Positions 753 through 17,000 of a stretch of DNA of 22,204 nt are shown piece after piece. The notes below the pieces were generated by a model. The model had not been told where the DNA came from and did no database searches. It saw only the letters and a list, made by a program, of their open reading frames with translations. How positions within the stretch are numbered: position 1 is the stretch's first letter; each line of letters opens with the position of its first letter. Location: the IMG/VR virus record IMGVR_UViG_2703718843_000003, positions 1 to 22,204 of that record, one strand, 5' to 3'. Origin of the DNA: a virus (lineage: Duplodnaviria; Heunggongvirae; Uroviricota; Caudoviricetes). Made by a program: the position numbers and the translations under genes.

Positions 753-779
753 AGCGGGCAAATGCCCGCTTTAGTTTTA
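753..779. terminator. GC hairpin (GCGGGC-AAAT-GCCCGC) followed by TTTAGTTTT; possible bidirectional terminator between invertase and gene U
   Basis: Perfect 6-bp GC stem with 4-nt loop and T-rich tail on + strand; sits between convergent genes. Confidence 0.45.
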
Positions 780-790
780 TGTGGATGTTG

Positions 791-1279
791 TCAGAACAGG
801 CCCGACAGCTTACTACTGGCAGAGTTGTAGGCGGACGTGGCTTTATCCTTCAAGCCAGAAAGTAAATCGCCAACAGACGACGCTTGCAGACGCTCGCGTA
901 AATCTTCATCACAGCGCTGAAAGCTGATCGAAAACTCAATTTTTTTTGCCTTTCCGTAGCGGTCAAATTCCGTATGCGTGGCCTGTAGCCCAGTCAGCAC
1001 ATACATCCCGTAAATCTGCCCTGCACCGCTGATTAAAGGCCACGGACGCCCGGTGTATGCCTGCGTTGCCAGAACGGTAAGAGACACGTCGCCGCCCGTA
1101 ATCTCAGGGTAAAGCACCCCGTCAAGGTTGATCTGCGTTTCACCAGCGCCGATGTACTGCCATTTTGCCGATCGGTTGATGCGATCATTCTTCACATGAC
1201 GCCAGTTCAGCGAGTGGCGTAACTGCTGGTAAGGCAGTGTCTTCAGTTCAAAAACGAACATCCCGTATATCATCATCAT
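791..1279 (-). CDS. U: Phage tail protein gpU (P2 U homolog)
   Basis: 162-aa ORF directly downstream of the tape measure gene on the same strand; SD AGGGGAGG 7 nt upstream of ATG at 1279; sequence (WRHVKNDRINRS..WQYIGAGETQINLDGVLYPEITGG) matches my recollection of P2 gpU. Confidence 0.85.
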   Translation of the reverse strand: MMMIYGMFVFELKTLPYQQLRHSLNWRHVKNDRINRSAKWQYIGAGETQINLDGVLYPEITGGDVSLTVLATQAYTGRPWPLISGAGQIYGMYVLTGLQATHTEFDRYGKAKKIEFSISFQRCDEDLRERLQASSVGDLLSGLKDKATSAYNSASSKLSGLF

Positions 1280-1293
1280 AATGTTGCCTCCCC

Positions 1294-4200
1294 TTAATCT
1301 CTGTCTTTGAAGCTGCCGCGATTGAGTCGCGCAAGGCGGGCCATTTCGGCATTCACTGCGTCGGCGGCAATCCGGCCAATTTCGCGAGCGTCCTGCCGGT
1401 CAACGCCGTGGAGGTGTACGTGGATTTCCCCCGTAAAGCCGCCAGCGGCAACCGATGTATTGCTGGCGCTGCGACTGACTGGTAAAAGTTCAGCCTGTTT
1501 AACGGGAAGCGATGCCGCCACCACTGCGGGGCGTGCGCTTAACCCGTTGTTCCTGACCGTGCTGGCCAGTTGCGATTCCTTCCATTCCCCACGAACGGCC
1601 AGCGCACGCGGCAGGTTTTTAAACACGATATCGCCGGGGCCGATCTTCTTCGTGTTATCGGCTGTCGCTTTAGTGTTGCTGTCGATGCTTTGCAACCTGC
1701 GCATAGTGCCGTTATCGCCGGTCAGCGGTGATGTGGGTTGCGGTGCGCCAGGCGGAACGTTATTCACCTCAACTTTTTTCGGCGTAACCTTCGCGATATC
1801 TCCCTGAAGAAGGGCGACTTTGTCCTGAAGAACAGCCATGCGCTGTGCGTCTTCGATCTTCTTTCTGGCTTTTTCGGCCTCATCTGGCAGAACGCCGAGC
1901 TTTTCAAGGATCCAGGCTAATGTATCCAGCAGCATTTTTGCAGGCGTCAGAACAAGCTGGAGCGCACCACCAAGAACGTTACCGAATACCTCACCGGCGC
2001 TGGCGCACTTATCCAGTGTTTCCTTGCAGGACTCCATCGGGGAAAGCAGAGATTTGAACCAGTTAAAGGCCTGGCTGACAGCGCTGCCTATCGCGTCAAA
2101 GATGGGTCTGAACTGCGAGAAGGTGTCACGTAACGGGGCCAGTCTTTCCATGATGCCGGTGAATACGCCAGCAAAAAATGCTTTAAGAGGCTCCCAGTAA
2201 CGCCAGATAAGCACCCCGGCAGCAATAAACGCCGCCACTATCAGGCCAATCGGACTCAACAGCAGCGACAGCGCTGTACCCAGCATAGACACCGCCGCAG
2301 TGATCATGCTCCATATGGCCGGTAAACCTGTCAGGCGAAGGGCGAGCATACCGAGGTTTTTTGTCAGTGCTCCCAGCGCGGCACCAGGTGTAAGAAATAC
2401 CCCCATGAGTGCGCCGCGCATAGCGGGGATGATGGTTGAAATTCCGCGCATTTTTCCTGCTAACGAGCCGAGAACTGGCCCCCATCCGCGCACGCTTGCC
2501 ATTGCCGGGCCGGAAGCTGTGCCGAGTGTTCGCAGAGCGGCAATCGTTCCGGTTATGCCTCTGCCCCCTGTCAGCAGGGTAAAACTTAACTGAAGTTTAG
2601 CCAGTGGACCCATCAGCAGACCGATCGCCAGCGATGTGCCGCCAATGGCGGCGGTCAGTGCCAGAACGCTACCACCGACAACCAGCAGGGATTGTGCGAG
2701 CTTCGGATTCTCCTTAGCCCACTGCGTCATATTCCCCACAACGTCACTCAGTCCCTGAGTCAGGCCACGAAGCTGATTGTTGACGAGATCGTTAATCTGG
2801 ATGCGGAAGCCTTCCCAGGCGCTGTCCAGATTTTTGAGATCGCCATCAAGGTTATCCGCCATTATTTTGGCGGCTTTCTGCGCCTCACCTTTGGCGTTTT
2901 TCAGTTCACCCAGCAGCTTCTGAAGTTCACCGCTACCGGCTGACATAACCAGAGCCTGGAATGACTTTGACGCCTCTTCACCGGCAATATCTTTGAAGAA
3001 TGAGAGCTTATCGGTATCCCCGTACTTGCTGATCTTTTTATAGAGATCGGTTAGAACCACTTCAGCAGGGCGCATTTTCCCCGTTGCGTCAGCGACTTCT
3101 ACGCCCAATTCTTTAAGCGCGGTTTTTGCCCTGCCGGTTGGTGCGGCAAGGCGTGAAAATGTGGCCTGCAAACCCGTACCGGCGATACTCCCGCGCAGGC
3201 CTACGTTCGCCATCACGCCGATCATGGCCGTGGTCTGTTCGACGCTGACTCCAAGGTTGGAAAGACCTGTCCCGGCGTACTTCATCGCTTCACCGATATT
3301 TTGCAGATCGGTGTTGGTTCTGGTGAACGCGCCAGTTAATACGTCGCTGACGCGATCCATTTCTTTGGGGTCGAGACGGAACTGAGACAGGATGTTTGAG
3401 CTGATATCAGCGCTTTCACCTAAATCCATACCACCGGCCAGCGCCATATTGAGCACACCAGGCAGTGCGGCCTGAATGGCCTGCGGAGTGAAACCGGCCA
3501 TAGCGAGAAATGCCTGCCCACTGGCGGCGTCGGTCGTGGTGAACTGTGTTTCAGCACCCAGCTTTTTGGCCTGGTCACGAAGTGCTGAAAAGTCAACGGA
3601 GCTTTTATCTATGCGGGTCAGCGCCTGCACGCGGGACATTTCCCGATCAAACCCAACGGCGGGGGATAAGAACCGCCCCGCTACGTAACCGGCAGCAGTG
3701 GCCCCGGCAACGGCCATCGTGCCACCGCCGCGAAGTTTACCCGCTGTTTGCTGCATCTGGTCGTAGCGTGCGCGTGCCTGCGTGACAGCGGCAAGCTGTC
3801 GCCGTTCCCGCTCAAGCGTCTGGTTGTACTGTTCGGTTCGACGTATGGCACTCTGAATGGTGCGATCGCTTCCGACAAGTGAAACGCCGTGACTGCGCAG
3901 CGCCTGTGAGGCGGCGCGCAGCTTAACCATTTCCTGTGTGCGTGCAGAGTTAAGGCGCTCCAGCTTTGCGGCCAGCGCTGCCATATGTGCTTTTTGCTTG
4001 TCTGTAAGCTGTGTACCTTCCCGCTGCGCCTGATTCAGCCCTTCAAGCGTCCGGCTGGCGTCGTCAATTTTGCGGGAGGTCTTTTGCACGCTGTCGCGCA
4101 GACGGTTGAATGTGCGGGACTGACTGTCCAGATCTTTAATGCTGGACTGCGTTTTTTTGAGGGATTCAGACAAACCGCCCGCACTCTGGCGGGCGGCATT

Positions 4201-4296
4201 GACCGGGCGGGTAAGTTTATCGATCGCGCTGAACGCGACGCGGATATTAAGGCTTTTCACTGTCACTGGCTCCACTTCGGACAGCCGCCCGCTCAC
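1294..4296 (-). CDS. T: Tail tape measure protein gpT
   Basis: 1000-codon ORF; coiled-coil N-terminal third, Gly/Ala-rich hydrophobic central region, position between E/E' and U. The codon at 4296 is GTG, not ATG; alternative GTG starts at 4266 and 4260 (GGAG 9 nt upstream of the latter), so the 5' end is uncertain. Confidence 0.85.
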   Translation of the reverse strand: MSGRLSEVEPVTVKSLNIRVAFSAIDKLTRPVNAARQSAGGLSESLKKTQSSIKDLDSQSRTFNRLRDSVQKTSRKIDDASRTLEGLNQAQREGTQLTDKQKAHMAALAAKLERLNSARTQEMVKLRAASQALRSHGVSLVGSDRTIQSAIRRTEQYNQTLERERRQLAAVTQARARYDQMQQTAGKLRGGGTMAVAGATAAGYVAGRFLSPAVGFDREMSRVQALTRIDKSSVDFSALRDQAKKLGAETQFTTTDAASGQAFLAMAGFTPQAIQAALPGVLNMALAGGMDLGESADISSNILSQFRLDPKEMDRVSDVLTGAFTRTNTDLQNIGEAMKYAGTGLSNLGVSVEQTTAMIGVMANVGLRGSIAGTGLQATFSRLAAPTGRAKTALKELGVEVADATGKMRPAEVVLTDLYKKISKYGDTDKLSFFKDIAGEEASKSFQALVMSAGSGELQKLLGELKNAKGEAQKAAKIMADNLDGDLKNLDSAWEGFRIQINDLVNNQLRGLTQGLSDVVGNMTQWAKENPKLAQSLLVVGGSVLALTAAIGGTSLAIGLLMGPLAKLQLSFTLLTGGRGITGTIAALRTLGTASGPAMASVRGWGPVLGSLAGKMRGISTIIPAMRGALMGVFLTPGAALGALTKNLGMLALRLTGLPAIWSMITAAVSMLGTALSLLLSPIGLIVAAFIAAGVLIWRYWEPLKAFFAGVFTGIMERLAPLRDTFSQFRPIFDAIGSAVSQAFNWFKSLLSPMESCKETLDKCASAGEVFGNVLGGALQLVLTPAKMLLDTLAWILEKLGVLPDEAEKARKKIEDAQRMAVLQDKVALLQGDIAKVTPKKVEVNNVPPGAPQPTSPLTGDNGTMRRLQSIDSNTKATADNTKKIGPGDIVFKNLPRALAVRGEWKESQLASTVRNNGLSARPAVVAASLPVKQAELLPVSRSASNTSVAAGGFTGEIHVHLHGVDRQDAREIGRIAADAVNAEMARLARLNRGSFKDRD

Positions 4297-4725
4297 GCCA
4301 GGCTATGACTTCGCCCAGTTCCATCGTGAAGACTTCAGAGGGCGGCCAGTTGAAAACAACCGCGATATCAGCGACCAGATCGTCGATCAGGTCGAACCGC
4401 AGGAGTGTTACTGATTCTCCGTCTCCGCCTCGCTCGACGCTCCAGACCCCGCAGGTGTCAAAAAAGGGACGAGCGCTTCAGACAGGCTGACAAAATCGCG
4501 CGTATCCATTTCGTTGATTTCGGTCTGTTTGAGGCGTGGTGACGTGACACGGGTCAGCAGTACCGCCACCGAATCCACATCCATATTCATCACGTTGACC
4601 AGCTTCAGACCGCGCAGGGAGCCAGCCTGTTTGATCTCATCCGTGATCGTTACCTGAGTAATTTTCTCATCGCCGCGAACAACGGGTTTTGCCAGAGTAA
4701 TGGCGTTATCGTTTTTTTTGCTCAT
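4247..4725 (-). CDS. E': gpE+E' fusion made by programmed -1 ribosomal frameshift
   Basis: After a -1 slip at T TTT TTG (+ strand 4459-4465) the reading frame stays open for about 70 codons (DTCGVWSVERGG...WPPSEVFTMELGEVIAWRERAAVRSGASDSEKP) and ends at TAA 4247-4249, overlapping the start of T. Hand-translated from the sequence. Confidence 0.6.
4408..4725 (-). CDS. E: Tail assembly chaperone gpE (zero-frame product)
   Basis: Starts MSKKNDNAITLAKPVV with GGAG 11 nt upstream of ATG at 4725; upstream of T on the same strand as in P2; contains the slippery site near its 3' end. Confidence 0.8.
   Translation of the reverse strand: MSKKNDNAITLAKPVVRGDEKITQVTITDEIKQAGSLRGLKLVNVMNMDVDSVAVLLTRVTSPRLKQTEINEMDTRDFVSLSEALVPFLTPAGSGASSEAETENQ
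4459..4465 (-). other. Slippery heptamer T-TTT-TTG for the E to E' -1 frameshift
   Basis: Minus-strand CCC TTT TTT GAC in the gpE frame; the canonical X XXY YYZ heptamer used by P2-like and lambda-like tail chaperone pairs. Confidence 0.6.
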
Positions 4726-4773
4726 TGTTGAATGCTCCGGGCGGCAAGGCTGTGCCGCCACTTATCAGGTTAA

Positions 4774-5289
4774 TCAGTTACCCATTCCCAGCGCAGACGT
4801 GATGCGGTCAGGGTAGATATTTTTGCCGTCTTTCTTGTAGATGAAGTTCAGAAGATCAAACTCAAACAGCGGCTTATCGTCGATGGTGAGTTTGTAATAA
4901 GTGTTCTTCATCGTGTAGCTGACGGAGGTGTCTTCTCCCTGCTTGCTTTCGCCGCCGTCCATTTCGGTGATGCGGCCGCGCAGTTCGACCTCAACCAGCA
5001 GGCTTTCACCATCGGTGTAATACTCCCCGGCGAAGCGGAAACGGGTTTCGTCGATATCGCCGCAGTAGTTCAGCAGTAACGACTGAACCAGACCGCCAAC
5101 CACCATCGTGGTATCCAGCGCGCCACTGTCCAGACCGAGATCCACCGCAGCGGAGCCAATCATCCCGCCCCCCTGAAAATCTTCAGTTTTACGGGTCAGT
5201 TTTGGCAGCGTCACGGAAGAGACTTTGCCGATGCAGTTGCTGCCGTTCACAAAGCAGGTGAACAGGCGTAGTTTGTGAGGAACCGCCAT
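4774..5289 (-). CDS. FII: Tail tube protein gpFII
   Basis: 171-aa ORF immediately downstream of the sheath gene (FI stop and FII ATG adjacent at 5290/5289); size and position match P2 FII. Confidence 0.9.
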   Translation of the reverse strand: MAVPHKLRLFTCFVNGSNCIGKVSSVTLPKLTRKTEDFQGGGMIGSAAVDLGLDSGALDTTMVVGGLVQSLLLNYCGDIDETRFRFAGEYYTDGESLLVEVELRGRITEMDGGESKQGEDTSVSYTMKNTYYKLTIDDKPLFEFDLLNFIYKKDGKNIYPDRITSALGMGN

Positions 5290-6471
5290 TTATGCACCTC
5301 CCAGGGAAGAAAACGCCGATTCGAAATACTCGTCCGTGAAGGTCTGGTAGAGCGTAAGATCTTCCATTGGCGGAACCGGTGTATATTTATAGCGAATGCG
5401 CACCTGACCCTGACGGAGACCGGTTGTCGGGTTATCCAGGATATCAAACCAGCATTCAGCACCAATCAGCCGCCCCTGCGTCACCAGCGAATTGAGTTTG
5501 CCGCTGATGCCGCTGACCACGTCCTTGACGTTGGCCGGGGTTAGCGGTTCGTCCACTGATTCAAATTGCGCCTCAGCGATACTGTCAGCCAGAATCTGTG
5601 CCGTACGGGTGTAAACCTCAAAAATATAATCTTTGGTGTCCGTAACGCGGTTGCCCCAGAACCGGAAACCATTACGCTTGATGAGCGTCGTGATCTCCTT
5701 GTTGTTGAGTTCGTTCGCGTCGCTGTCTTCGGCCTGAAGCGACCAGAAAACATCCTGCGAAATACCCAGCACGTTGCTTACCGACACATTGGAAAGCGAT
5801 TTGTGCCAGCCCTGATTGTTGTCAATCAGCGCGCGAAGGCCGCAGGCATAGGCCGGGGCCGGGAAGGTTTCGTTCTCTCCGGTCAGCGGGTTGTAGGCGA
5901 TGAAATCAGGCCAGATAAGCATTAGCTCGCGATAGGCGAAGGTCGCACGATATGCGGTAGCTTCAGCCATCGTTTTGCAGCCGTAGCAACTGGCGTAAAC
6001 AAACGCGCGCAAATTCTGAGCAATCACACACAACGCAGAAGTGACTTCTTCCGTGTCGTAGCCCGGCACGGCCAGAATGCGTGGACGATAACCAACCTTC
6101 TGCTCGGCAGTCAGAAACGCGTACATGCCGGTATAGCTGCCGTCTTCTGCCGTGCCACCCATGATGAGCTGCGACTGCGTTTTACCGCCTTCCTCTTCCG
6201 TGGCTGCTGCCACGCGCACAACGATAACCTTCGGACTGGTCTGGTCAGCGATGGCTTTAAGCGTTTTGTACAGGGAGCCGGTTTTACCCGCCTTATCCAG
6301 CACGTTGTTAACCCGCGTCAGCAACACGGGGGTATTCAGGGGAAAGGTTTCCGCATCGGCATCATCCGCCACGGCAACGACCCCAATGACACTTGATTCA
6401 ATGTCATTGATGGCCGTCACCAGGTCGGTATTCTCCCGGACGCGTACACCGTGGAAACGTGTCTCTGACAT
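5290..6471 (-). CDS. FI: Contractile tail sheath protein gpFI
   Basis: Start chosen at ATG 6471 (MSETRFHGVRV...), preceded by GGTGG, matching the remembered P2 FI N-terminus MSDYHHGVQV; conserved C-terminal region (GFRFWGNR...YKYTPVPPMEDLT). The track ORF start at 6516 is an upstream extension. Confidence 0.9.
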   Translation of the reverse strand: MSETRFHGVRVRENTDLVTAINDIESSVIGVVAVADDADAETFPLNTPVLLTRVNNVLDKAGKTGSLYKTLKAIADQTSPKVIVVRVAAATEEEGGKTQSQLIMGGTAEDGSYTGMYAFLTAEQKVGYRPRILAVPGYDTEEVTSALCVIAQNLRAFVYASCYGCKTMAEATAYRATFAYRELMLIWPDFIAYNPLTGENETFPAPAYACGLRALIDNNQGWHKSLSNVSVSNVLGISQDVFWSLQAEDSDANELNNKEITTLIKRNGFRFWGNRVTDTKDYIFEVYTRTAQILADSIAEAQFESVDEPLTPANVKDVVSGISGKLNSLVTQGRLIGAECWFDILDNPTTGLRQGQVRIRYKYTPVPPMEDLTLYQTFTDEYFESAFSSLGGA

Positions 6472-6624
6472 GTTAGCCACCATTACGTTATTGAGTTCGC
6501 AGTGATAATCCCTCATGTTGGAATGTCACTCACGCTATTGCGGGTCTGGCCGGACGGCGACAACAAAAACCGATTTGGTGTCTCCCGCGCGCGTGGGATC
6601 CTTCGCCGGAAGAAGGGGGAAAGC

Positions 6625-7761
6625 ATGGCACTTACAGACCTGACAAAATCACTTAACGACGCCATCAGCACTTATAACGATTCACTGACCGAGGCGGTAA
6701 AAAGTCCGGGATTCAGCATAACGATGGGCGGTAAGGTACGGACGCAGCTTGACGAGCGGATCATGTCGTTGTCACTGACGGACAACCGGGGTTTTGATGC
6801 CGATCAGCTTTCCATTTCTATTGATGACAGTGACGGTATGGTTGCTCTGCCTCCGCGTGGCGCTGAGCTTGCGGTATCAATTGGCTGGCTGGGTGAGCCG
6901 CTGATTTACAAGGGACTGTACACGGTTGATGAGGTATCCCATGAAGGGCCGGGTGATATCATTGGTATTACTGCCCGCAGCGCTGATTTTCGTGAAGAGT
7001 TCAACGTAAAGCGCGAAGTCTCATGGCATGACGTGACCGTTGAGCGCGTTGTGTCGGCCATAGCGCACCGCTACGGTCTGAAAGCGCAGATCAGTGAAAT
7101 GCTCATGGATATTGAGATTGATCACGCTGACCAGACGCAGGAAAGCGATATGTCATTCCTTACCCGCATGGCGGAAATGCTGGGCGCAATTGCCACCGTA
7201 AAGAACGGCAGTCTGCTGTTTATCCTGCCGGGCGGAGGTGTTACCGCTGACGGGAAGGCGCTCCCCTCTGCCAGTATTAACCGGACGAGCGGCGATCGGC
7301 ACCGCTTTCGTATTGCCGATCGGGATGCGTATACCGGCGTCAGGGCTTACTGGCTGGATCTCAATTTTGGCAAAAAGAAAAAGGTCAGTGTTAAGCGCCG
7401 TAAGCCAGCAAAGCCCAAAAAAGAGAAGAGCAGCAGCCGTGAGGGCGATTACATGGAGGGCGCTGACGGTAACGTCTATGTGCTGCGCAAAACCTACCAG
7501 AATGAAGAGGCGGCGAAACGTGCTGCGGCGGCAAAATGGCAACAGCTTCAGCGTGGTGCGGCAGAGTTTTCGATCACCCTGGCGCGTGGCCGCGCTGAGC
7601 TTTACCCCGAAATGCATGTCACGGTTAGCGGTTTTAAGGATGAAATAGACAATCAGGACTGGATTATTGCGCGTGCTGAGCACGTCATAGACGACAGCGG
7701 TTTTACCACCCGGCTGGAGCTGGAAGCAAAAATACCTGACTGGATAGCGGAAACTGAATAA
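6625..7761 (+). CDS. D: Tail protein gpD (late control gene D family)
   Basis: ATG at 6625 with AAGGGGGA SD; sequence (SLTDNRGFDADQL..SWHDVTV..DRHRFRIADRDAYTGV..KWQQLQRGAAEFSI) matches my recollection of P2 gpD including the basic lysine-rich linker. Confidence 0.9.
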   Translation: MALTDLTKSLNDAISTYNDSLTEAVKSPGFSITMGGKVRTQLDERIMSLSLTDNRGFDADQLSISIDDSDGMVALPPRGAELAVSIGWLGEPLIYKGLYTVDEVSHEGPGDIIGITARSADFREEFNVKREVSWHDVTVERVVSAIAHRYGLKAQISEMLMDIEIDHADQTQESDMSFLTRMAEMLGAIATVKNGSLLFILPGGGVTADGKALPSASINRTSGDRHRFRIADRDAYTGVRAYWLDLNFGKKKKVSVKRRKPAKPKKEKSSSREGDYMEGADGNVYVLRKTYQNEEAAKRAAAAKWQQLQRGAAEFSITLARGRAELYPEMHVTVSGFKDEIDNQDWIIARAEHVIDDSGFTTRLELEAKIPDWIAETE

Positions 7762-7800
7762 AATGAAATGGAGTTCAACTCCCACAGGGGAGCCATCATT

Positions 7801-8049
7801 ATGTTCAGATGTCCATTTTGCGGCGCTATGGCCCGCACCCGTACCAGCCGTAAAATAACCGATATGACTATCCGGCAATATCACCAGTGTCAGAATCTGG
7901 AATGTAGCCGGTCATTCACCACGCTAAACAGCGTGGAAAGGGAAGTAACAAAGCGTGCAGGCACTGCACCGTTACCGCCTGACTTTATCCCCCGCGATGC
8001 TTTCCCGGCATCACATTACGGCAGAGACCAGCTTAATCTGGCTCTCTGA
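7801..8049 (+). CDS. ogr: Ogr/Delta-family zinc-finger late transcription activator
   Basis: MFRCPFCGAMARTRTSRKITDMTIRQYHQCQNLECSRSF carries the C-x2-C...C-x4-C finger and closely resembles remembered P2 Ogr; GGGGAG SD 8 nt upstream of ATG 7801; directly follows D as in P2. Confidence 0.85.
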   Translation: MFRCPFCGAMARTRTSRKITDMTIRQYHQCQNLECSRSFTTLNSVEREVTKRAGTAPLPPDFIPRDAFPASHYGRDQLNLAL

Positions 8050-8174
8050 CCACTGTCAAAGTGCCCCCGTAAATCCATTCAGTGCGGGGGCAACTTCAAG
8101 CAAAACGCTTTTTCCAGAGAAAATATCTTTGATAACATCGGTCAGCATATTAATAGCGATGATGGGATAGGGAT

Positions 8175-8558
8175 ATGAAAAAGGTGTTGTTAATACTGGC
8201 TTTGGTTTCTCTTGTTGGATGCAAGCCCAGCGCTGAAAAAGCTGTTGAACTAGGTAAGTCAGAAGTTGCAGCAGATGTTAGGGATCCAGATAGCGTAAAA
8301 TTTAGATATCTTCGATTTGTTCAGGGTGAGGATTCACCTGATGGTGCGGTCACTGGCTATGTTTGCGGTCAGATCAATGCGAAAAATGGCTTTGGGGCTT
8401 ACGAAGGATTCTCTCCATTCCTTATGAAAATAAGCATGAAATCAAAGGGTACATTTTCCAAGGGGGTCACCTACTCTGTAACGGAGAAGAAAATCTACAC
8501 CCGGTTTAGTGACCCAGTACCAGCGTCATACAAAGACAAGTGCGGCCCTGATGAGTGA
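8175..8558 (+). CDS. Secreted lipoprotein (cargo/moron gene), function unknown
   Basis: N-terminal signal peptide MKKVLLILALVSLVG followed by lipobox Cys (LVGC, Cys16) and K at +2; lower GC than flanking core genes; followed by a strong intrinsic terminator. Sits between ogr and the att region, where P2 itself has no gene as far as I recall. Confidence 0.75.
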   Translation: MKKVLLILALVSLVGCKPSAEKAVELGKSEVAADVRDPDSVKFRYLRFVQGEDSPDGAVTGYVCGQINAKNGFGAYEGFSPFLMKISMKSKGTFSKGVTYSVTEKKIYTRFSDPVPASYKDKCGPDE

Positions 8559-8576
8559 GGGATGTTTCAGTAAGAT

Positions 8577-8600
8577 GCCGGGCAGAAGCCCGGCTTTTTT
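8577..8600 (+). terminator. Rho-independent terminator after the lipoprotein gene
   Basis: GCCGGGC-AGAA-GCCCGGC perfect 7-bp stem followed by TTTTTT. Confidence 0.7.
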
Positions 8601-8693
8601 ATGTCGAAGTGTAGTCAAAATGTAGACGAAGTTTAGAATAAATCCTTTTATTCCAGTTTGTTACATGCGGAATATCTTCACCATCCCTGTCTT

Positions 8694-8720
8694 CCCCCAC
8701 ATGATGTGGGGGTTTTTTTT
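8694..8720 (+). terminator. Second hairpin plus T8 tract inside the att region
   Basis: CCCCCAC-ATGAT-GTGGGGG followed by TTTTTTTT; may be the reconstituted terminator of the host gene the phage integrates next to, or part of the attP core. Confidence 0.55.
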
Positions 8721-8732
8721 ATCAATCACTTA
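8720..8732. promoter_or_regulatory. IHF-consensus site (WATCAANNNNTTR) in the att region
   Basis: TATCAATCACTTA matches the IHF consensus exactly; located between the hairpin and the Int arm-type repeats. Confidence 0.35.
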
Positions 8733-8805
8733 CATCGGTTTCCGTAAGAAAACAGTAACTTAAGAAAACCTATAAGGGACTGGAAGGGCTACAAAGTTCT
8801 GAGAG

Positions 8806-8826
8806 TGTGGACACTATGTGGACACT
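8806..8826. repeat. Tandem direct repeat TGTGGACACT x2 (putative Int arm-type P' sites)
   Basis: Perfect 10-bp tandem copies separated by 1 bp, 12 bp from the int stop codon; matches the P2 Int arm-site consensus TGTGGACA as I remember it. Degenerate copies (GTGTAGTC, TGTAGACG) occur at 8609-8628 on the other side. Confidence 0.5.
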
Positions 8827-8838
8827 CAGAAGGGAAAT

Positions 8839-9819
8839 TTATAACGTCACTCCGCCTTTTAGAGGATTCAGCGCGACGGCATTTTGCAGGTAGTCAGGCG
8901 CAAGGTGCGCATAGGCCATCGTCTGCTGAATGCTCGCATGTCCCAGAATCTGTTGCAGTGCGATTATATTGCCCCCATTCATCATGAAATGGCTTGCGAA
9001 TGTATGCCGCAGGATGTGGGTTGCCTGATTGGGTGGTATATCTGGCTTCACTCTGCGTAAAATCCCGCAAAACTTCTCATAATCAACTTTGAATAATTTA
9101 GCGCTGGCCTCCTCTTTAACTTTTTTCTCCAGTTCCTCAGAAATCGGCACGGTTCGCTTTTTACCGTTTTTGGTTTTCAGGAAGGTAACCCTGCAATTTG
9201 TAATCTGTGCTGGTTTTAGCGTGGCAACTTCCGTCCATCTTCCTCCAGTGCTCAGACATAAAAGTGCGACAAGTAAGTCATCACCATCCAAAACATTTAA
9301 CAGTTTTTCGATTTCTGCCTTTTCCAGGAACGTCATTTCAGGGTTGGCCTCCGCCAGTGGCGGCAGTCCGTGAATTGGGTGTTGCCCGGAAAATTCATCC
9401 AATTGAATTAATTTTGTGAACATGCCGGATAATCGGTACATGTCACGGTTTATCGTTGCGGCACTGATACCATTTCGTAGTCGCATGGAACGATAATCCA
9501 TCAAAGCTCTTTTGCTCATCCGGCTCACTGGTATATCACCTATGCCGCTGATGGTTTTGAGCAGATGATTAAACTCTTTTGTTCCATGCTCGTGGTTTTG
9601 CCCGTGATATTTCCACCAGATGTCCAGCAACTCACTCAAAGTTCTGCGATCTGCTCGCTGACCTGCCCATTCTTTCTGGCTGGCGTAGGCGATTGTGTAT
9701 CGCTCAAATGCTACAGCCTCAGCTTTTCTTTCAAATTTCCTGCGGATGCGTTTTCCGTCGCGACCGCGAGGTCTAATGTCCACTTCATAGCGTCCATCAT
9801 CGAGCTTCTTAATTGACAT
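8839..9819 (-). CDS. int: Tyrosine integrase (P2 Int family)
   Basis: Start MSIKKLDDGRYEVDIRPRGRDG matches the remembered P2 Int N-terminus; C-terminal catalytic region with HxLRHT (ATHILRHTFASH) and the conserved Tyr context (MAYAHLAP). Confidence 0.9.
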   Translation of the reverse strand: MSIKKLDDGRYEVDIRPRGRDGKRIRRKFERKAEAVAFERYTIAYASQKEWAGQRADRRTLSELLDIWWKYHGQNHEHGTKEFNHLLKTISGIGDIPVSRMSKRALMDYRSMRLRNGISAATINRDMYRLSGMFTKLIQLDEFSGQHPIHGLPPLAEANPEMTFLEKAEIEKLLNVLDGDDLLVALLCLSTGGRWTEVATLKPAQITNCRVTFLKTKNGKKRTVPISEELEKKVKEEASAKLFKVDYEKFCGILRRVKPDIPPNQATHILRHTFASHFMMNGGNIIALQQILGHASIQQTMAYAHLAPDYLQNAVALNPLKGGVTL

Positions 9820-9888
9820 AAGAAAGCCCTCTGACGCTGTATTCACCATCTTGGTAACAAATGGTGAAAATGTAATGTTTATAGAGTG

Positions 9889-10182
9889 TTAACCAGTCTG
9901 TTTTTCGGAGTGGTCTGATTCTGTTGGTTTTTGCCCAATGTGTGCGAGAGCCGGCGCGATCTGACCAGCTTGTGGTGACGTATCACCAGTCATTAACCAG
10001 AGCGTATATTTTTTAAATAAAGGCGTATTTGTGACTCGCATAACGATGCTGAGACCAGGGTCTTTATGCCCACTTTCGTAATTTTTGACTGTTCCTAGAG
10101 CTATCCCGCTAATTTCGCTGAATTTCGCCTGTGTTAAGCCTTCTGCTTTCCTAATCGCTTTCAGTTTTTCGAATGTCTGCAT
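9889..10182 (-). CDS. C: Immunity repressor C (P2 C family, HTH)
   Basis: 97 aa; N-terminal HTH and C-terminal TKYTLWLMTGD...QAGQIAPALAHIGQ match the remembered P2 C repressor; divergent from cox with face-to-face promoters. Confidence 0.85.
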   Translation of the reverse strand: MQTFEKLKAIRKAEGLTQAKFSEISGIALGTVKNYESGHKDPGLSIVMRVTNTPLFKKYTLWLMTGDTSPQAGQIAPALAHIGQKPTESDHSEKQTG

Positions 10183-10238
10183 TTGACAGTAACCTATTGG
10201 TGACTTATATTCCCGTCAAAAGGTTGTGTATTGGTGAC
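10183..10238 (+). promoter_or_regulatory. Early promoter Pe (TTGACA-N17-TATATT) with two direct operator repeats TATTGGTGAC
   Basis: -35 TTGACA at 10183-10188, -10 TATATT at 10206-10211, 17-bp spacer; 10-bp direct repeats at 10195-10204 and 10229-10238 flank the -10, the arrangement described for P2 C operators O1/O2. Confidence 0.5.
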
Positions 10239-10254
10239 CTTTTGAGTGTGTTAG

Positions 10255-10295
10255 CCAGTCCCTAGAAAGGACAGGGGCGACCTAGAAGGGACTGG
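10255..10295. repeat. Imperfect palindrome CCAGTCCC...GGGACTGG enclosing two CCTAGAA(A/G)GG repeats
   Basis: Perfect 8-bp inverted repeat arms 10255-10262 and 10288-10295 with internal direct repeats, upstream of cox; candidate Cox/Pc regulatory element. Confidence 0.3.
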
Positions 10296-10334
10296 ATCTA
10301 ATAAGGGTAACACGAAAGCAAAAAGGGCTAATCA

Positions 10335-10607
10335 ATGGAAGTCAATGACTATGTGATTCAGTACCCGATTGATGCGGTACATACGGTTAAGTTTGCAGAG
10401 TTACTTGGTAAGCCAGAAACGGCTGTAGTCAAGATGGTAAAAGAGAATAAATTGCCAGTTATTGAGCTTCGTGATCCAAGTAAGCCGAACGCTCGTGTCG
10501 GTGAGAAGTGGGTTTTCATTCCAGAGTTTAATCGCGCTGTACGAGAGGCGTTTTATAACCGACCAGTTGAACAGCGTGATGCATGGCTTTTGTGGATGGG
10601 GTTGTGA
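10335..10607 (+). CDS. cox: Cox (excisionase / lytic-switch repressor of Pc)
   Basis: 90 aa at the P2 cox position; KLPVIEL...GEKWVFIPEFN...RDAWLLWMGL resembles remembered P2 Cox. Confidence 0.8.
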   Translation: MEVNDYVIQYPIDAVHTVKFAELLGKPETAVVKMVKENKLPVIELRDPSKPNARVGEKWVFIPEFNRAVREAFYNRPVEQRDAWLLWMGL

Positions 10608-10609
10608 TT

Positions 10610-10780
10610 ATGAGTGAACCGCGTTGTATTGCTCAGTTACTGCGTAACGAAAGCCCCAGGGCGATTGACTTCACCATCACCCACGGTAAGGGGCGTAAGG
10701 GAATCATTATCCGCACCAAAAAACAGAGTCCGTTAAAAAAGGCTCTGACCTTTCTGAAAAGCTGGAGGGTCTGGAAATGA
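10610..10780 (+). CDS. Small hypothetical protein (P2 orf78 position)
   Basis: ATG 10610 three nt after cox stop; stop overlaps gene B start (ATGA); basic 56-aa product. Confidence 0.45.
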   Translation: MSEPRCIAQLLRNESPRAIDFTITHGKGRKGIIIRTKKQSPLKKALTFLKSWRVWK

Positions 10781-11277
10781 CAGTGATGACGCTCAATCTC
10801 GTTGAAAAACAGCCAGCAGCTATGCGCCGGATAATTGGCAAGCATCTTGCCGTCCCTCGCTGGCAGGATACATGTGATTATTATAATCAGATGATGGAAC
10901 GCGAACGGCTAACGGTTTGCTTCCATGCGCAGTTAAAACAACGTCACGCAACGATGCGTTTTGAAGAAATGAACGACGTCGAACGTGAACGGCTGGTTTG
11001 TGCAATTGATGAATTGCGTGGGGCATTCTCAAAACGCCGTCAGGTCGGTGCAAGTGAGTATGCATATATTAGCTTTTTAACTGTCAGTCAGCGCCGTACT
11101 TTATTTATGCATGCCAGATTGACTGAAAAAGAATTCAACCAGCCATACTGGCGAATTAATGAAGAGTCATGTTACTGGCGTGATGCTTTATTCCGTGCAT
11201 TACGTGAATTATTCAGCCTGTTTGAGTATGCACCGACAATTCTGACGTCGGTAAAACCAGAGCAATATCTGCATTAA
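10777..11277 (+). CDS. B: Replication protein gpB (helicase-loader-like)
   Basis: 166 aa; sequence essentially collinear with my recollection of P2 gpB (MTVMTLNLVEKQPAAMRRIIGKHLAVPRWQDTCDYYNQMMERERL...). Confidence 0.85.
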   Translation: MTVMTLNLVEKQPAAMRRIIGKHLAVPRWQDTCDYYNQMMERERLTVCFHAQLKQRHATMRFEEMNDVERERLVCAIDELRGAFSKRRQVGASEYAYISFLTVSQRRTLFMHARLTEKEFNQPYWRINEESCYWRDALFRALRELFSLFEYAPTILTSVKPEQYLH

Positions 11278-11340
11278 GTAATTAACCAGAGTTTTTAACG
11301 CACTTAATTGTGCGGGGCTTCTTTTTGCCTGGAGAAAGTC

Positions 11341-11565
11341 ATGCATACAGTTTCTGAAAATCAGTGCGGTAAATACGTATTACTGCTGCAACAGGCCAGA
11401 ACCGAAGCACAGGCCGACGCGGCGACGCGCTTTTCTTCTCATCTTGACGCCATGATTCGCCACATCACAAAGGCGGAGTTATCCCGCGTGGAGATAGTCG
11501 AGCTGCTCAGTCAGGAGTCGGAAAAATTTCACAATATCGGATTGTCTCGCGGGGAGGTGCTTTGA
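11341..11565 (+). CDS. Hypothetical protein (P2 orf80 position)
   Basis: ATG 11341 with GGAGAAAG SD; stop overlaps next start (TGATG). Confidence 0.45.
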
Positions 11566-11867
11566 TGTCCTGTTCTCATTCAGTTGTATTACTGAATAAC
11601 GCCTTAAAAATCGCCGTTATGGGAAATGGTGATTTGTCTCTTATTCAACTTTGTCTTGATAAAGAAAAACGCGACATAACTGAATCTGTTATCGCGATTT
11701 ATCAGAATGAATTAAACCTTCTGTCTGATGTGGTCAATTTACTTGTTAAACGCGCTGTATTCCACAAGCAAATTTCCTCCGTGGATGAACTGACAAAATT
11801 AACGACAGAAATCGTCAGCTATTGCGCTGATGAATTTAAGAAACTGAACGACAAAAGGAACTGGTAA
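11565..11867 (+). CDS. Hypothetical protein (P2 orf81 position)
   Basis: ATG 11565 with GGGGAGG SD; translationally coupled to neighbours. Confidence 0.5.
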   Translation: MSCSHSVVLLNNALKIAVMGNGDLSLIQLCLDKEKRDITESVIAIYQNELNLLSDVVNLLVKRAVFHKQISSVDELTKLTTEIVSYCADEFKKLNDKRNW

Positions 11868-12091
11868 TGCCGGACAACGTAGATTTCATTCAGGAACAAC
11901 AGGCTGAATTACTGGAGCGCCAGATTAACGCGGCAAGGGTAAAACATTGCGGTGTTTCTGCGCTGGTTTGCGAAGAGTGTGACGTGCCAATACCTGCTGC
12001 CCGTCGTGCGGCTTATCCGTCAGCCACGCGTTGTGTTTCCTGTCAGTCAGTCTTTGAAGCAAAAAACAAACATTACCGGAGAATGGCATGA
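11867..12091 (+). CDS. TraR/DksA-family C4 zinc-finger protein (P2 orf82 position)
   Basis: C-x2-C ... C-x2-C motif (VCEECDVPIP...RCVSCQ) typical of the phage TraR/DksA family; start overlaps previous stop (TAATG). Confidence 0.7.
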   Translation: MPDNVDFIQEQQAELLERQINAARVKHCGVSALVCEECDVPIPAARRAAYPSATRCVSCQSVFEAKNKHYRRMA

Positions 12092-12363
12092 GTATTCGTA
12101 TCGAAATTGGCGAACGTTATGTCGTTACCAGTGACAGCTTTCAGTTTATTCTCCACGAGAAAAAGAGAGCGGAAAGCGGTAAAAACGCCGGTCAGGAGTG
12201 GCTGGCGGTGGTTGGTTATTACCCGAAATTAAGCCAGCTCGTTTCCGGCCTGATGCATCACGATATTCTGACCGGAAGCGCAAAGTCTTTTGCTGATTTA
12301 AACGCGCAGGTTGAGCAACTCAGCAAGCGTTGTTCAGAGGCTTTTGGCTCATATGACCGTTAA
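12088..12363 (+). CDS. Hypothetical protein (P2 orf83 position)
   Basis: 91-aa ORF overlapping the start of gene A. Confidence 0.5.
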   Translation: MSIRIEIGERYVVTSDSFQFILHEKKRAESGKNAGQEWLAVVGYYPKLSQLVSGLMHHDILTGSAKSFADLNAQVEQLSKRCSEAFGSYDR

Positions 12364-14629
12364 AGCCTCCGGGCATTTTGTCCCTCCGTCAGCATTTGCC
12401 GCAGGCACCGGTGAGACGTTTACCGGTGCTTATGCATGGAACGCGCCACGCGAGGCCGTCGGGCGCGAAAGACCCCTTACACGTGACGAGATGCGTCAGG
12501 TGCAAGGTGTTTTATCCACGATTAACCGCCTGCCTTACTTTTTGCGCTCGCTGTTTACTTCACGCTATGACTACATCCGGCGCAATAAAAGCCCGGTACA
12601 CGGGTTTTATTTCCTCACATCCACTTTTCAGCGTCGTTTATGGCCGCGCATTGAGCGCGTGAATCAGCGCCATGAAATGAACACCGACGCGTCGTTGCTG
12701 TTTCTGGCAGAGCGTGACCACTATGCGCGTCTGCCGGGGATGAATGACAAGGAGCTGAAAAAGTTTGCCGCCCGTATTTCATCGCAGCTTTTCATGATGT
12801 ATGAGGAACTCTGCGATGCCTGGGTGGATGCGCATGGCGAAAAAGAATCACTGTTTACGGATGAGGCGCAGGATCATCTGTATGGTCATGTTGCTGGCGC
12901 TGCACGTGCTTTCAATATTTCCCCGCTCTACTGGAAAAAATACCGTAAAGGACAGATAACCACGAGGCAGGCATATTCTGCCATTGCCCGCCTGTTTAAC
13001 GATGAGTGGTGGACTCATCAGCTTAAAGGCCAGCGTATGCGCTGGCATGAAGCGTTACTGATAGCTGTCGGGGAGGTCAATAAAGACCGTTCTCCTTATG
13101 CCAGTAAACATGCCATTCGTGATGTGCGTGCGCGCCGCCAGGCAAATCTGGAATTTCTTAAATCGTGTGACCTTGAAAACAGGGAAACCGGCGAGCGCAT
13201 CGACCTTATCAGTAAGGTGATGAGCAGTATTTCTAATCCTGAAATTCGCCGGATGGAGCTGATGAACACCATTGCCGGTATTGAGCGTTACGCCGCTGCA
13301 GAGGGTGATGTGGGGATGTTTATCACGCTGACCGCGCCGTCAAAGTATCACCCGACACGTCAGGTCGGAAAAGGCGAAAGTAAAACCGTCCAGCTTAATC
13401 ACGGCTGGAATGATGAGGCATTTAATCCAAAGGATGCGCAGCGATATCTCTGCCATATCTGGAGCCTGATGCGCACGGCATTCAAGGATAATGATTTACA
13501 GGTCTACGGTTTGCGAGTCGTCGAGCCACACCACGACGGAACGCCGCACTGGCATATGATGCTTTTTTGTAATCCACGCCAGCGTAACCAGATTATCGAA
13601 ATCATGCGTCGCTATGCGCTCAAAGAGGATGGCGACGAAAGAGGAGCCGCGCGAAACCGTTTTCAGGCAAAACACCTTAACCGGGGCGGTGCTGCGGGGT
13701 ATATCGCGAAATACATCTCAAAAAATATCGACGGCTATGCACTGGATGGTCAGCTCGATAACGATACCGGCAGACCGCTGAAAGACACTGCCGCGGCTGT
13801 TACCGCATGGGCGTCAACGTGGCGCATTCCGCAATTTAAAACGGTTGGCCTGCCGACAATGGGGGCTTACCGTGAACTACGCAAATTGCCTCGCGGCGTC
13901 AGCATTGCTGATGAGTTTGACGAACGCGTCGAGGCTGCACGCGCTGCCGCAGACAGTGGCGATTTTGCGCTGTATATCAGCGCGCAAGGTGGGGCAAATG
14001 TCCCGCGCGATTGTCAGACTGTCAGGGTTGCCCGTAGCCCGTCGGATGACGTTAACGAGTATGAGGAAGAAGTCGAGAGAGTGGTCGGCATTTACGCGCC
14101 TCATCTCGGCGCGCGTCATATTCATATCACCAGAACGACGGACTGGCGCATTGTGCCGAAAGTGCCAGTCGTTGAGCCTTTGACTTTAAAAAGCGGCATC
14201 GCCGCGCCTCGGAGTCCTGTCAATAACTGTGGAAAGCTCACCGGTGGTGATACTTCGTTACCGGCTCCCACACCTTCTGAACACGCCGCAGCAGTGCTTA
14301 ATCTGGTTGATGACGGTGTTATCGAATGGAATGACCCGGAGGTCGTGAGGGCGCTCAGGGGCGCATTAAAATACGGGCTGAGAACACCAAATCGTCAGCA
14401 GAGAAACGGAAGCCCGTTAAAACCACATGAAATTGCACCATCGGCCAGACTGACCCGGTCGGAAAGAATGCAAATTACCCGTATCCGCGTTGACCTTGCT
14501 CAGAACGGTATCAGGCCGCAGCGATGGGAGCTTGAGGCGCTGGCGCGTGGCGCGACCGTAAATTATGACGGGAAACCTTTCACTTATCAGGTCGCTGATG
14601 ATTGGCCGGGATTTTTGTTACCCATTTGA
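12353..14629 (+). CDS. A: Replication initiation endonuclease gpA (rolling-circle nickase)
   Basis: Start MTVKASGHFVPPSAFAAGTGETFTGAYAWNAPREAVGRERPLTRDEMRQ is near-identical to the remembered P2 gpA; contains the HUH-like GTPHWHMMLF region and the active-site Tyr region AGYIAKYISKNIDGYAL. Confidence 0.9.
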   Translation: MTVKASGHFVPPSAFAAGTGETFTGAYAWNAPREAVGRERPLTRDEMRQVQGVLSTINRLPYFLRSLFTSRYDYIRRNKSPVHGFYFLTSTFQRRLWPRIERVNQRHEMNTDASLLFLAERDHYARLPGMNDKELKKFAARISSQLFMMYEELCDAWVDAHGEKESLFTDEAQDHLYGHVAGAARAFNISPLYWKKYRKGQITTRQAYSAIARLFNDEWWTHQLKGQRMRWHEALLIAVGEVNKDRSPYASKHAIRDVRARRQANLEFLKSCDLENRETGERIDLISKVMSSISNPEIRRMELMNTIAGIERYAAAEGDVGMFITLTAPSKYHPTRQVGKGESKTVQLNHGWNDEAFNPKDAQRYLCHIWSLMRTAFKDNDLQVYGLRVVEPHHDGTPHWHMMLFCNPRQRNQIIEIMRRYALKEDGDERGAARNRFQAKHLNRGGAAGYIAKYISKNIDGYALDGQLDNDTGRPLKDTAAAVTAWASTWRIPQFKTVGLPTMGAYRELRKLPRGVSIADEFDERVEAARAAADSGDFALYISAQGGANVPRDCQTVRVARSPSDDVNEYEEEVERVVGIYAPHLGARHIHITRTTDWRIVPKVPVVEPLTLKSGIAAPRSPVNNCGKLTGGDTSLPAPTPSEHAAAVLNLVDDGVIEWNDPEVVRALRGALKYGLRTPNRQQRNGSPLKPHEIAPSARLTRSERMQITRIRVDLAQNGIRPQRWELEALARGATVNYDGKPFTYQVADDWPGFLLPI

Positions 14630-14814
14630 GTAAAAATACAGCGTGATTTTATATGTCTTTGAATGGATTATGCGAAGCACCTCTAAGGTAGATGAGGAGC
14701 AATAGTGTGTTGAATCAGAAGGCTAAATTGTATTGAATCGTTAGCATGTAATTGAAGGCAGCTATTTGATTCGAGTCATAAAAGAGCATCTATTTCGGTT
14801 AATAAAACCATTGC

Positions 14815-14860
14815 GAGTGACTTTATGTCGAAGCATAATTCATCTCGAGCGAAGTCTTGC
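14815..14860. repeat. Direct repeat copy 1 (GAGTGACT ... GAGCGAAGTCTTGC)
   Basis: Shares an 8-mer and a perfect 14-mer with copy 2 at 15100-15124; copy 1 has a 24-bp internal expansion. Confidence 0.45.
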
Positions 14861-14889
14861 TAGTCTTTCATCGGATTGATGACGGGCGC

Positions 14890-14919
14890 AAAAAAACCAC
14901 CCTGGCAGGTGGTTTTTTT
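14890..14919. terminator. Bidirectional rho-independent terminator (A7-CCACC..GGTGG-T7)
   Basis: Symmetric hairpin flanked by an A run and a T run; closes the replication operon on + and the small minus-strand ORF on -. Confidence 0.65.
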
Positions 14920-14931
14920 GTTTGAAGCATA

Positions 14932-15045
14932 CTAAAGAAAAATACTTACATGGATATTACTGACGTTTACTGACAAACCACTCGGACTACCATATGGATA
15001 GCCAAAGAGGGCCAGAACGAGAATGCAGTAATAGCACTTCTTCAT
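14932..15045 (-). CDS. Candidate 37-codon mini-gene encoding a small hydrophobic Cys-containing peptide
   Basis: Minus-strand AGGAGG SD 4 nt before ATG (15045); peptide MKKCYYCILVLALFGYPYGSPSGLSVNVSNIHVSIFL; stop TAG at 14932-14934 followed 13 nt later by the bidirectional terminator. Not in the ORF track (below its length cutoff). Coding status unproven. Confidence 0.3.
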   Translation of the reverse strand: MKKCYYCILVLALFGYPYGSPSGLSVNVSNIHVSIFL

Positions 15046-15099
15046 ATCGCCTCCTGTAAGCAGAGGGCAATTTCCGCCGATATATGCGCTTCTAAGGCG

Positions 15100-15124
15100 G
15101 AGTGACTATTGAGCGAAGTCTTGC
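15100..15124. repeat. Direct repeat copy 2 (GAGTGACTATTGAGCGAAGTCTTGC)
   Basis: See copy 1; the two copies bracket the terminator and the mini-ORF. Confidence 0.45.
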
Positions 15125-15701
15125 CCTGAAATAATGCTCTGTTTAAACGCAAAGTGATCTGGCATATCACTGAACAGAGAACCTGAACAACACAACATAT
15201 AGTATGTCGTTGTTTCTGGTTGCATTTTATGTTGTGTAATACTGGTTTTGCATCAAGGATGTTTGAGCTTTTTTTGATATAGCTCAAAGTAAAAAGCAGA
15301 GACTACGGATGATAAGGTCTTGAAAGCAATGTAAATTTTTTAAAGTTGTGAGTGGCTAGAAATGCACAGTTTCAATATGGCGGATTTAAACAAGTAATTA
15401 AAAATAGCGCCATAAATTCCAATAAAATCATTATGTTGCGTTTTCTGTGGAAACTGCGGTGACTCTGAAATTTTCTTTTAGTGTCGCTGAGGTTTAACAA
15501 CTCGCTGCGCAAGTAGTTAGTGTTTTTTTAACTCAATATCCTGATTTATAAGGTTTTTTATAAATCGTTGGCTGATTGCGCGTATTCATCTCGTGTTATC
15601 AGCAAAGATAAGCGCTATATGCAAAACTGAATGCATATATGATGTCGAAAATGTTATGGGAAAACGTGGATTAGTGTTATAGTAATGGCTGAAAAACAGC
15701 A

Positions 15702-15740
15702 TTGACATAAAATAACAACTGTGATATGGCTGTGCATACT
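15702..15740 (+). promoter_or_regulatory. Putative sigma70 promoter for the peptidase/membrane-protein pair
   Basis: TTGACA at 15702-15707; weak -10 candidates TATGGC (17-bp spacer, TG at -15/-14) or CATACT; about 30-60 bp upstream of a strong AGGAGG SD. Confidence 0.35.
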
Positions 15741-15766
15741 TAACTTTTTTAACGTAGGAGGCAACC

Positions 15767-16252
15767 ATGAGCTATGCAGCTAAAAAACTGCTTGACCGCT
15801 ATTGGGATCGCCGACTACCTGTCGATCCGTTTAAGCTTGCTAAAGCGTGGGGTGCTCGTGTTGAAGCACTTGAGGAATCGGCTTATAACAACGATGGGTT
15901 AAGCGGTCTGGCTGTCATCAAAAAGGGTGTCCATAGGATTTATTTTGATTCTAGTGAACATTCTAATCGTCAACGTTTTACTGTTGCACACGAGTTAGGT
16001 CATCATGTGCTGGGGCATACCCAGGACGGAGAGTACCATCGGGATAATGTCGGGAATTATTCAACAGGTGCTCGTGATTACCGTGAGGTTGAAGCAAACA
16101 AGTTTGCTGCTGAGTTGTTAATGCCTGAGTCTGCTATACGTCAATTGGTATCCAGAGAAGGTATTGATAGCACTTTGAGATTAGCAAGCATCTTTAATGT
16201 ATCAGAAGCCGCTATGCATTGGCGCTTAAAGAGCTTAGGAATGGCTTATTAA
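15767..16252 (+). CDS. ImmA/IrrE-family (M78-like) zinc metallopeptidase, orphan (no adjacent HTH partner)
   Basis: HEXXH motif H75-E-L-G-H79 followed by the family signature E107-V-E-A-N-K-F-A-A-E-L-L-M-P; ideal SD AGGAGG 5 nt upstream of ATG; AT-rich codon usage. Confidence 0.8.
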   Translation: MSYAAKKLLDRYWDRRLPVDPFKLAKAWGARVEALEESAYNNDGLSGLAVIKKGVHRIYFDSSEHSNRQRFTVAHELGHHVLGHTQDGEYHRDNVGNYSTGARDYREVEANKFAAELLMPESAIRQLVSREGIDSTLRLASIFNVSEAAMHWRLKSLGMAY

Positions 16253-16278
16253 TTAGCCTTTAACTTTTAACCTGTTTA

Positions 16279-16318
16279 AAATCACCTTTACGTTTGTACA
16301 TGTAAGGGTGATTTTTTT
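16279..16318 (+). terminator. Intergenic hairpin plus T7 tract (terminator/attenuator) that also contains the only SD-like sequence for the downstream gene
   Basis: AAATCACC (16279-16286) pairs with GGTGATTT (16307-16314), 20-nt loop, T run 16312-16318 ending at the ATG of the membrane-protein ORF; AAGGGTG in the 3' arm lies 8 nt before that ATG. Confidence 0.45.
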
Positions 16319-16994: not shown

Positions 16995-17000
16995 GTCGTT

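Follow-up and report, generated by a model that had tools for sequence, protein, structure and literature searches.

The 280-bp region at positions 8559–8838 of the window, as the whole analyzed stretch of 22,204 bp is called here, is most probably the internal seam of a tandem heterologous double lysogen, in which a phage A prophage and then a phage B prophage occupy the cpxP/fieF locus of an E. coli chromosome. Judging from its sequence, the junction is a hybrid of the form P(A)-core-P'(B), i.e., an attR(A)/attL(B) site, with a Novemvirus-like phage on the left and a Wphi-type Peduovirus on the right. The layout of the tandem is proposed by analogy, because the window, which is the entire draft contig LOOK01000041.1 of the bacterial assembly GCA_001575435.1 and contains no host DNA, reaches neither the outer attL nor the outer attR. 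It was assigned to this contig of 22,204 bp through its tape measure protein, which occurs in no other record. The preliminary description considered the ogr–int join incompatible with a simple single prophage, and this reasoning is upheld. Among the alternatives that it left, the tandem arrangement is retained, as a seam between two different phages, and the circular or virion-derived genome is not. Its view of the site as an intact attP has to be replaced, as the flanks are not opposite ends of a single element but come from two phages.

The gene order D, ogr, lipoprotein gene, 280 bp, int is seen in the window, so that the ogr/lipoprotein side does directly abut the int side. No open reading frame is located in the 280 bp between the stop of the lipoprotein gene (8558) and the stop codon of int (8839, minus strand). 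The hairpins mentioned in the preliminary description are present: a terminator-like one found by a hairpin scan 3' of the lipoprotein gene (8577–8594, plus strand) and the core hairpin followed by T8 (8694–8712), likewise terminator-like. At least two arm-type direct repeats are found on each side of the core. In the left, P arm they are TGTAGTCA at 8610 and TGTAGACG at 8621 (8610–8628, plus strand, 11-bp spacing), a phage A-type pair that was overlooked earlier and is unlike the right pair in sequence type. The P' arm on the right carries two copies of TGTGGACACT (8806–8815 and 8817–8826, plus strand, 11-bp spacing), with TGTGGACA at 8806 and 8817. These are the tandem repeats reported before; they are of the phage B (Wphi/P2) type and conform to the P2-type arm-site consensus tgTGGaCa (PMC3448106). 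An AT-rich block, AATAAATCCTTTTATT (8638–8653, plus strand), made up of columns that are invariant in the alignment of the P arms of both lineages, is a candidate site for an accessory protein (IHF). The IHF-consensus site reported earlier is confirmed as an exact match, TATCAATCACTTA (consensus WATCAANNNNTTR), at the core/P' boundary (8720–8732, plus strand). Matches with at most one mismatch are not enriched in the window (19 found vs. 20.9 expected from shuffles), and this one is weak evidence alone because such matches are no commoner than in shuffles. Two direct repeats of TAAGAAAAC in the P' arm (8745–8769, plus strand), 16 bp apart, are putative Cox (excisionase) boxes.

The left part of the window (1–8723) belongs to lineage A and comprises an invertase gene, an inverted U-T-E-FII-FI block, D, ogr, the lipoprotein gene, and the P arm. 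The serine invertase (87–668, plus strand; Resolvase + HTH_7, Pfam PF00239/PF02796) is identical to a protein of A-type prophages. The tail block (791–6471) was assigned with PHROGs, Pfam, and the genes annotated on the source contig; its orientation is opposite to that of D/ogr, and it encodes, all on the minus strand, gpU (791–1279), the tape measure protein T (1294–4260), E/E' (4247–4725), the tube protein FII (4774–5289), and the sheath protein FI (5290–6471). It is followed on the plus strand by the genes for gpD (6625–7761), the Ogr/Delta zinc-finger late activator (7801–8049), and a cargo lipoprotein of 127 aa with the lipobox LVGC in its translation (8175–8558). The block is inverted also with respect to the canonical P2 order, and the invertase gene borders it; the same inverted block is found in phiT5282H, in E. 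coli CFSAN051542, and in E. coli 1332KP, with an annotated invertase at its border only in 1332KP.

Among 50,697 phage records the sole match to positions 645–8732 is Enterobacter phage phiT5282H (Novemvirus), at 94%. Positions 13–8723 are 99.3% identical to the right ends of E. coli prophages situated directly beside fieF (loci L006–L014), a comparison set composed of the fieF-side prophage ends of contigs that encode the identical lipoprotein. In phage A single lysogens the lipoprotein gene is the last one before fieF, and of the 24 long contigs read, about 22 have the gene for this exact lipoprotein adjoining fieF (9/10 among the matches listed). The identical invertase has A-type late genes upstream, including those for a 349-aa capsid protein and a 212-aa gpS, in 10/10 places listed (seven similar places collapsed); the nucleotide identity of A-type and B-type late genes is below 70%. 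A complete A-type prophage with its own int lies between cpxP and fieF in E. coli CFSAN051542, in the order int, dam, A, Q, P, O, N, inverted U-T-E-FII-FI, D, ogr, lipoprotein.

The right part of the window (8679–22204) belongs to lineage B, with the P' arm, int, C, cox, B, A, cargo genes, cos, Q, P, and O. The tyrosine-type integrase of 326 aa (8839–9819, minus strand) is 99% identical to Wphi Int and 65–67% identical to the A-type Ints. The early region (9889–14629) contains the genes for the repressor C (9889–10182, minus strand), Cox (10335–10607), B (10777–11277), and, after small orfs, the replication protein A (12353–14629). The late genes present are those for the portal protein Q (18368–19402, minus strand), terminase P (19402–21174, minus strand), and scaffold O (21348–22202, plus strand). 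The cos site of phage B, an exact copy of the P2 19-nt cohesive-end sequence GGCGAGGCGGGGAAAGCAC (18180–18198, plus strand), lies between the cargo genes and Q, and the A-to-Q stretch is continuous through it, as described before; such continuity, offered earlier as support, is normal in any prophage and uninformative alone.

Searched against the same 50,697 phage records, the right part matches Wphi/P2-type Peduovirus genomes at 97.8–99.7%. Its identity to prophages reaches 100.000%, the value for the prophage left end of locus L021, located directly beside cpxP, in a comparison set of contigs that encode the identical cargo protein. The exact Int of the window adjoins cpxP in 29/29 long contigs read. 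A B-type prophage is present in full in E. coli MS20653. Its identity to the right half of the window is 98.75%, its genes keep the canonical order FI-FII-E-T-U-D-ogr, and its right end, of the Wphi type, lies beside fieF. Differences between the window Int and the A-type Ints include many N-terminal substitutions, and the C-terminal catalytic region is nearly invariant. The N-terminal part of Int is the arm-binding domain (PMC3448106).

The chimeric nature of the site is apparent when its two arms are compared separately with those of related phages. The P arm (8596–8678) is identical (100%) to that of the junction in the draft contig L011, 89% identical to that of the 1332KP junction, 86% to that of phiT5282H attP, and only 51% to that of Wphi attP. 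For the P' arm (8726–8838) the values are 100% with Wphi attP and 49% with phiT5282H attP. The repeat types agree with this division. The TGTAGTCA/TGTAGACG repeats are common to phiT5282H attP, the attR of CFSAN051542, and the 1332KP junction, the own P arm of Wphi contains TGTGGACG/TGTGGACA, and the own P' arm of phiT5282H contains two copies of TGTAGACA. The P and P' arms of the window are thus not a cognate pair from the phage that supplied the adjacent int, since arm identities and repeat types differ. Nor are the ogr-side and int-side genes the two ends of one phage genome, the left ones being Novemvirus-like and the right ones those of a Peduovirus. Both the alignments and the per-segment identities give the form P(first phage)-core-P'(second phage). 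No single record among the 50,697 phage records spans both sides of the junction. The hybrid-junction pattern had no matches in IMG/VR, GTDB representative genomes, or JGI metagenomes, and a looser version had none in IMG/VR; as a control, the pattern matched the window itself, and a cognate A-type attP was recovered once from IMG/VR.

The two homologies, A-type and B-type, overlap only in the 45-bp common core CACCATCCCTGTCTTCCCCCACATGATGTGGGGGTTTTTTTTATC (8679–8723, plus strand), which was defined by aligning the window, the K-12 attB, the attL and attR of lysogens, and the attP sites of Wphi and phiT5282H, with the K-12 annotation and sequence as reference. It is present in a single copy in the window. 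The comparison of the core with attB bears out the earlier expectation of a host site with a terminator hairpin: the core is the K-12 cpxP–fieF intergenic sequence except for one loop base, and it is identical across the attL and attR of the aligned lysogens, apart from a stem variant in the attL of 1332KP. As far as these alignments go, two phage lineages are shown to have different arms and integrases on the same 45-bp core. Both occupy this attB singly as well, A-type ends being found by fieF and B-type ends by cpxP, and Wphi1 is located at cpxP–fieF in E. coli W (PMC3032704). The hairpin-loop polymorphism (window 8704; L004 1372) consists of a C in the K-12 attB and an A in the phage and lysogen sites, and the stem variant of 1332KP, CCCCCTCATGATG-AGGGG, is found in attL alone (L039, about 5440). 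The core polymorphism suggests that strand exchange may take place 3' of the core hairpin.

The core covers nucleotides 17–58 of the sRNA CpxQ (42 of its 58 nt), encoded in the cpxP 3' UTR, including the terminator hairpin, plus 3 nt (L004 1331–1391). At the Rfam gathering level no match to the core was obtained, and the weak sub-threshold matches are the same ones as at the K-12 CpxQ locus; hence the K-12 annotation is the basis for the overlap with CpxQ, because no Rfam model detects the core. Full CpxQ is regenerated by attL, and orphan copies of the CpxQ 3' part are found in the internal junction and attR. The core is present in 5,425 of 5,426 complete E. coli genomes, at 6,265 places. From the approximately 840 extra copies it follows that the site is occupied in roughly 15% of the genomes. 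At least one complete genome has four copies, which could represent a larger array.

A complete array of the kind proposed for the window is found in E. coli 1332KP, on a closed chromosome (NZ_CM173849.1, ~241.4–303.3 kb), where the order is cpxP-A-junction-B-fieF. Its left boundary reads cpxP-core-P'(two TGTAGACA)-intA, followed by a full A-like prophage up to ogr and a 384-nt gene. The internal junction is P(TGTAGTCA/TGTAGACG)-core-P'(two TGTGGACACT)-intB, and the second prophage is a full B-like Peduovirus ending with ogrK, after which come P(TGTGGACG/TGTGGACA)-core-fieF. The cognate arms are thus present at the outer attL and attR. Among 5,426 complete E. coli genomes, 1332KP is the only one in which at least 80% of the junction is covered, with 84% identity; no other close match to the junction was found in this set, and an intact Wphi attP occurs in 0 of the 5,426. 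In L011, a 106.5-kb draft contig that extends ~85 kb past the locus on the A side, the identical P arm runs into a P' arm and int that are B-like but differ from those of the window, and L011 therefore represents an independent event. The A-then-B order is seen in 3/3 arrays (the window, L011, and 1332KP), a number too small to be significant, and might reflect a directional preference in secondary integration. Yet another contig, L013 (GCA_002516775.1, NOFT01000029.1), has at positions 1–1900 an inverted B-type segment with core/P arm, ogr, and truncated D, which is 96.9% identical to positions 33780–32276 of the MS20653 prophage and abuts an A-type invertible tail-fibre segment with its invertase. 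The arrangement resembles an A+B array that has been rearranged, perhaps by the invertases.

The layout proposed for the strain of the window would be cpxP-core-P'(A)-intA ... ogrA-lipo-P(A)-core-P'(B)-intB ... ogrB-P(B)-core-fieF. A tandem of this type could arise by Int-mediated recombination of an incoming attP with the core kept at one boundary, attR or attL, of a prophage already integrated at that attB, either by entry of B into the attR of A or by entry of A into the attL of B, and each prophage would keep its own cognate arm pair. Excision of A with the junction as its attR would leave cpxP-core-P'(B), and excision of B with the junction as its attL would leave P(A)-core-fieF. The predicted excision scars are the common junctions observed in single lysogens.

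The alternatives differ in what they make of the join at the core. One of them, an unlikely one, takes the junction for the genuine attP of a single natural hybrid with an A-type tail end and B-type early and head genes, which would exist either as a circle, free or replicating, or as a polylysogen of tandem copies of itself. The window by itself is compatible with this reading: its 22.2 kb together with ~11–12 kb of missing N-to-H genes would make a genome of normal P2 size, P2-like phages are mosaic, and both Ints use the same core, with related arm repeats one base apart. Against it, the invertase and tail module is joined to A-type late genes in all ten places listed (seven collapsed), and in the B-type prophages with 98–100% identity to the right half the tail is of the canonical P2 kind and the P arm of the Wphi type, each relative of either half being paired with the other half of its own lineage; on these same grounds A and B were dropped as two ends of one phage. 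The junction is, moreover, absent from the phage records and IMG/VR contigs. A circle or polylysogen beside an integrated copy would be expected to branch the assembly graph at the core, where the contig is unbroken, and P2-type phages are, as is generally known, poorly inducible, which also speaks against a free form. A mis-join by the assembler across the 45-bp core, a repeat of three copies, with both phages present in another arrangement, is very unlikely. The core is indeed an exact repeat in attL, attR, and any internal junction, and the assembly is a short-read-style draft whose contigs break at other repeats, but reads of at least 100 bp would span 45 bp, assemblers would mostly break at repeats that they do not resolve, and two independent assemblies, L011 and the closed 1332KP chromosome, show the A-then-B junction.

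It is extremely unlikely that the site is the intact attP of a single P2-type phage with a circular, circularly permuted, or virion-derived genome. Contiguity of the ogr-side and int-side genes and the intact cos would fit such a phage, but the arms and the flanking genes come from two lineages, and the 5,426 complete E. coli genomes include neither an intact Wphi-type attP nor a close match to the junction. The source itself gives no support for a circular or virion-derived genome, because the window is a whole draft contig of 22.2 kb which lacks terminal overlap and the genes N through H. Neither an overlap nor common 14-mers were found at the two ends of its 22,204 bp, so that the idea of a circular contig put forward in the preliminary description fails, and N, M, L, the lysis, baseplate, and tail-fibre genes (the N-to-H interval) are absent from the window.

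The attP of Wphi (AY135739, Peduovirus; integrated at cpxP–fieF in E. coli W) resembles the junction in its core, its P' arm with two TGTGGACACT, and its int, which are 99.6–100% alike; it differs in the P arm (51%), with TGTGGACG/TGTGGACA instead of the TGTAGTCA/TGTAGACG of the window, and the window's genes upstream of the junction are from another genus and not the D–ogr of Wphi. The attP of phiT5282H (MG589387, Novemvirus) has the same core, a P arm with 86% identity, and the same TGTAGTCA/TGTAGACG repeats, and this phage shares with related E. coli prophages, e.g., that of CFSAN051542, the inverted U-T-E-FII-FI block followed by D and ogr. It differs in its P' arm with two TGTAGACA, in its A-type int (65–67% to the window Int), and in cpdA, which sits where the window has the lipoprotein gene. 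The 1332KP tandem agrees with the window in locus, order, and a hybrid junction after a gene of the size of that for the lipoprotein (384 nt). It differs in being part of a closed chromosome, the window being an isolated contig, and its identity across the junction is 84–87%; because it is only 84–87%, the 1332KP array is considered to consist of different phage variants and to result from an independent event.

Tandem dilysogens are classical in lambda, and as an array the window is a further instance of a described phenomenon, tandem prophages with a common att. In STEC and EPEC, tandem prophages with one att sequence and prophages integrated into prophages have been reported (Nakamura et al. 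2021, PMC8112680). These clusters are similar to the window array in that the second phage uses the att core left at the boundary of the resident one, which gives a one-locus cluster. The cases described there are lambdoid, some of them using attB copies inside prophage genomes (PMC8112680); the window differs from them in combining two P2-family genera at one chromosomal core, with a simple attR(A)/attL(B) hybrid.

Stacking at cpxP/fieF is occasional: it was found in one of 5,426 complete E. coli genomes, the window contig, and one other draft. The case calls for caution, since an assembled contig that combines an attP-like junction with an intact cos is not proof of a circular or episomal phage; arm-versus-arm comparison, complemented by that with related phages, exposes a hetero-tandem array. 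Two P2-family genera with integrases only 65–67% identical use exactly the same 45-bp core, which overlaps CpxQ. In a tandem A–B array one genome length separates cos(A) from cos(B), and this segment carries the A late genes, the hybrid att, and the int, immunity, and replication genes of B. Cos-to-cos packaging or Int exchange at the core would then swap whole early and late modules between Novemvirus-like phages and Peduovirus, and it is plausible that tandem arrays are sites of module exchange between phages. There is a slim chance that hybrid phages between the two genera do arise from such arrays, with the junction serving, now or later, as their functional attP.

The ends of the contig are located at other features. 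The left end falls at one boundary of the invertible tail-fibre segment, immediately before the invertase gene. Alignments with relatives start at window positions 2–14, varying with the orientation of the segment, and such a boundary is a typical site for an assembly break. The right end is 2 nt past the gpO stop codon. Similarity between A and B was ruled out as the cause of this end, their late genes having less than 70% nucleotide identity. The break there may be due to another Peduovirus prophage in the same genome, which is a further assumption; an assembly problem of this kind has been described for E. coli W (PMC3032704).

It is also worth mentioning that the phage B part contains a low-GC cargo island (14630–17942; GC 0.33–0.47, flanks ~0.55) between A and cos, at the position of the P2 old/tin hotspot. 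Its first 1.1 kb (14630–15766) is almost free of open reading frames. Further on, the island encodes a CapP-like ImmA/IrrE M78 peptidase (15767–16252; PADLOC capP 1e-30, Pfam PF06114) and two proteins without a family match (16319–16918, plus strand, and 17001–17942, minus strand), and it may be a defence or regulatory module.
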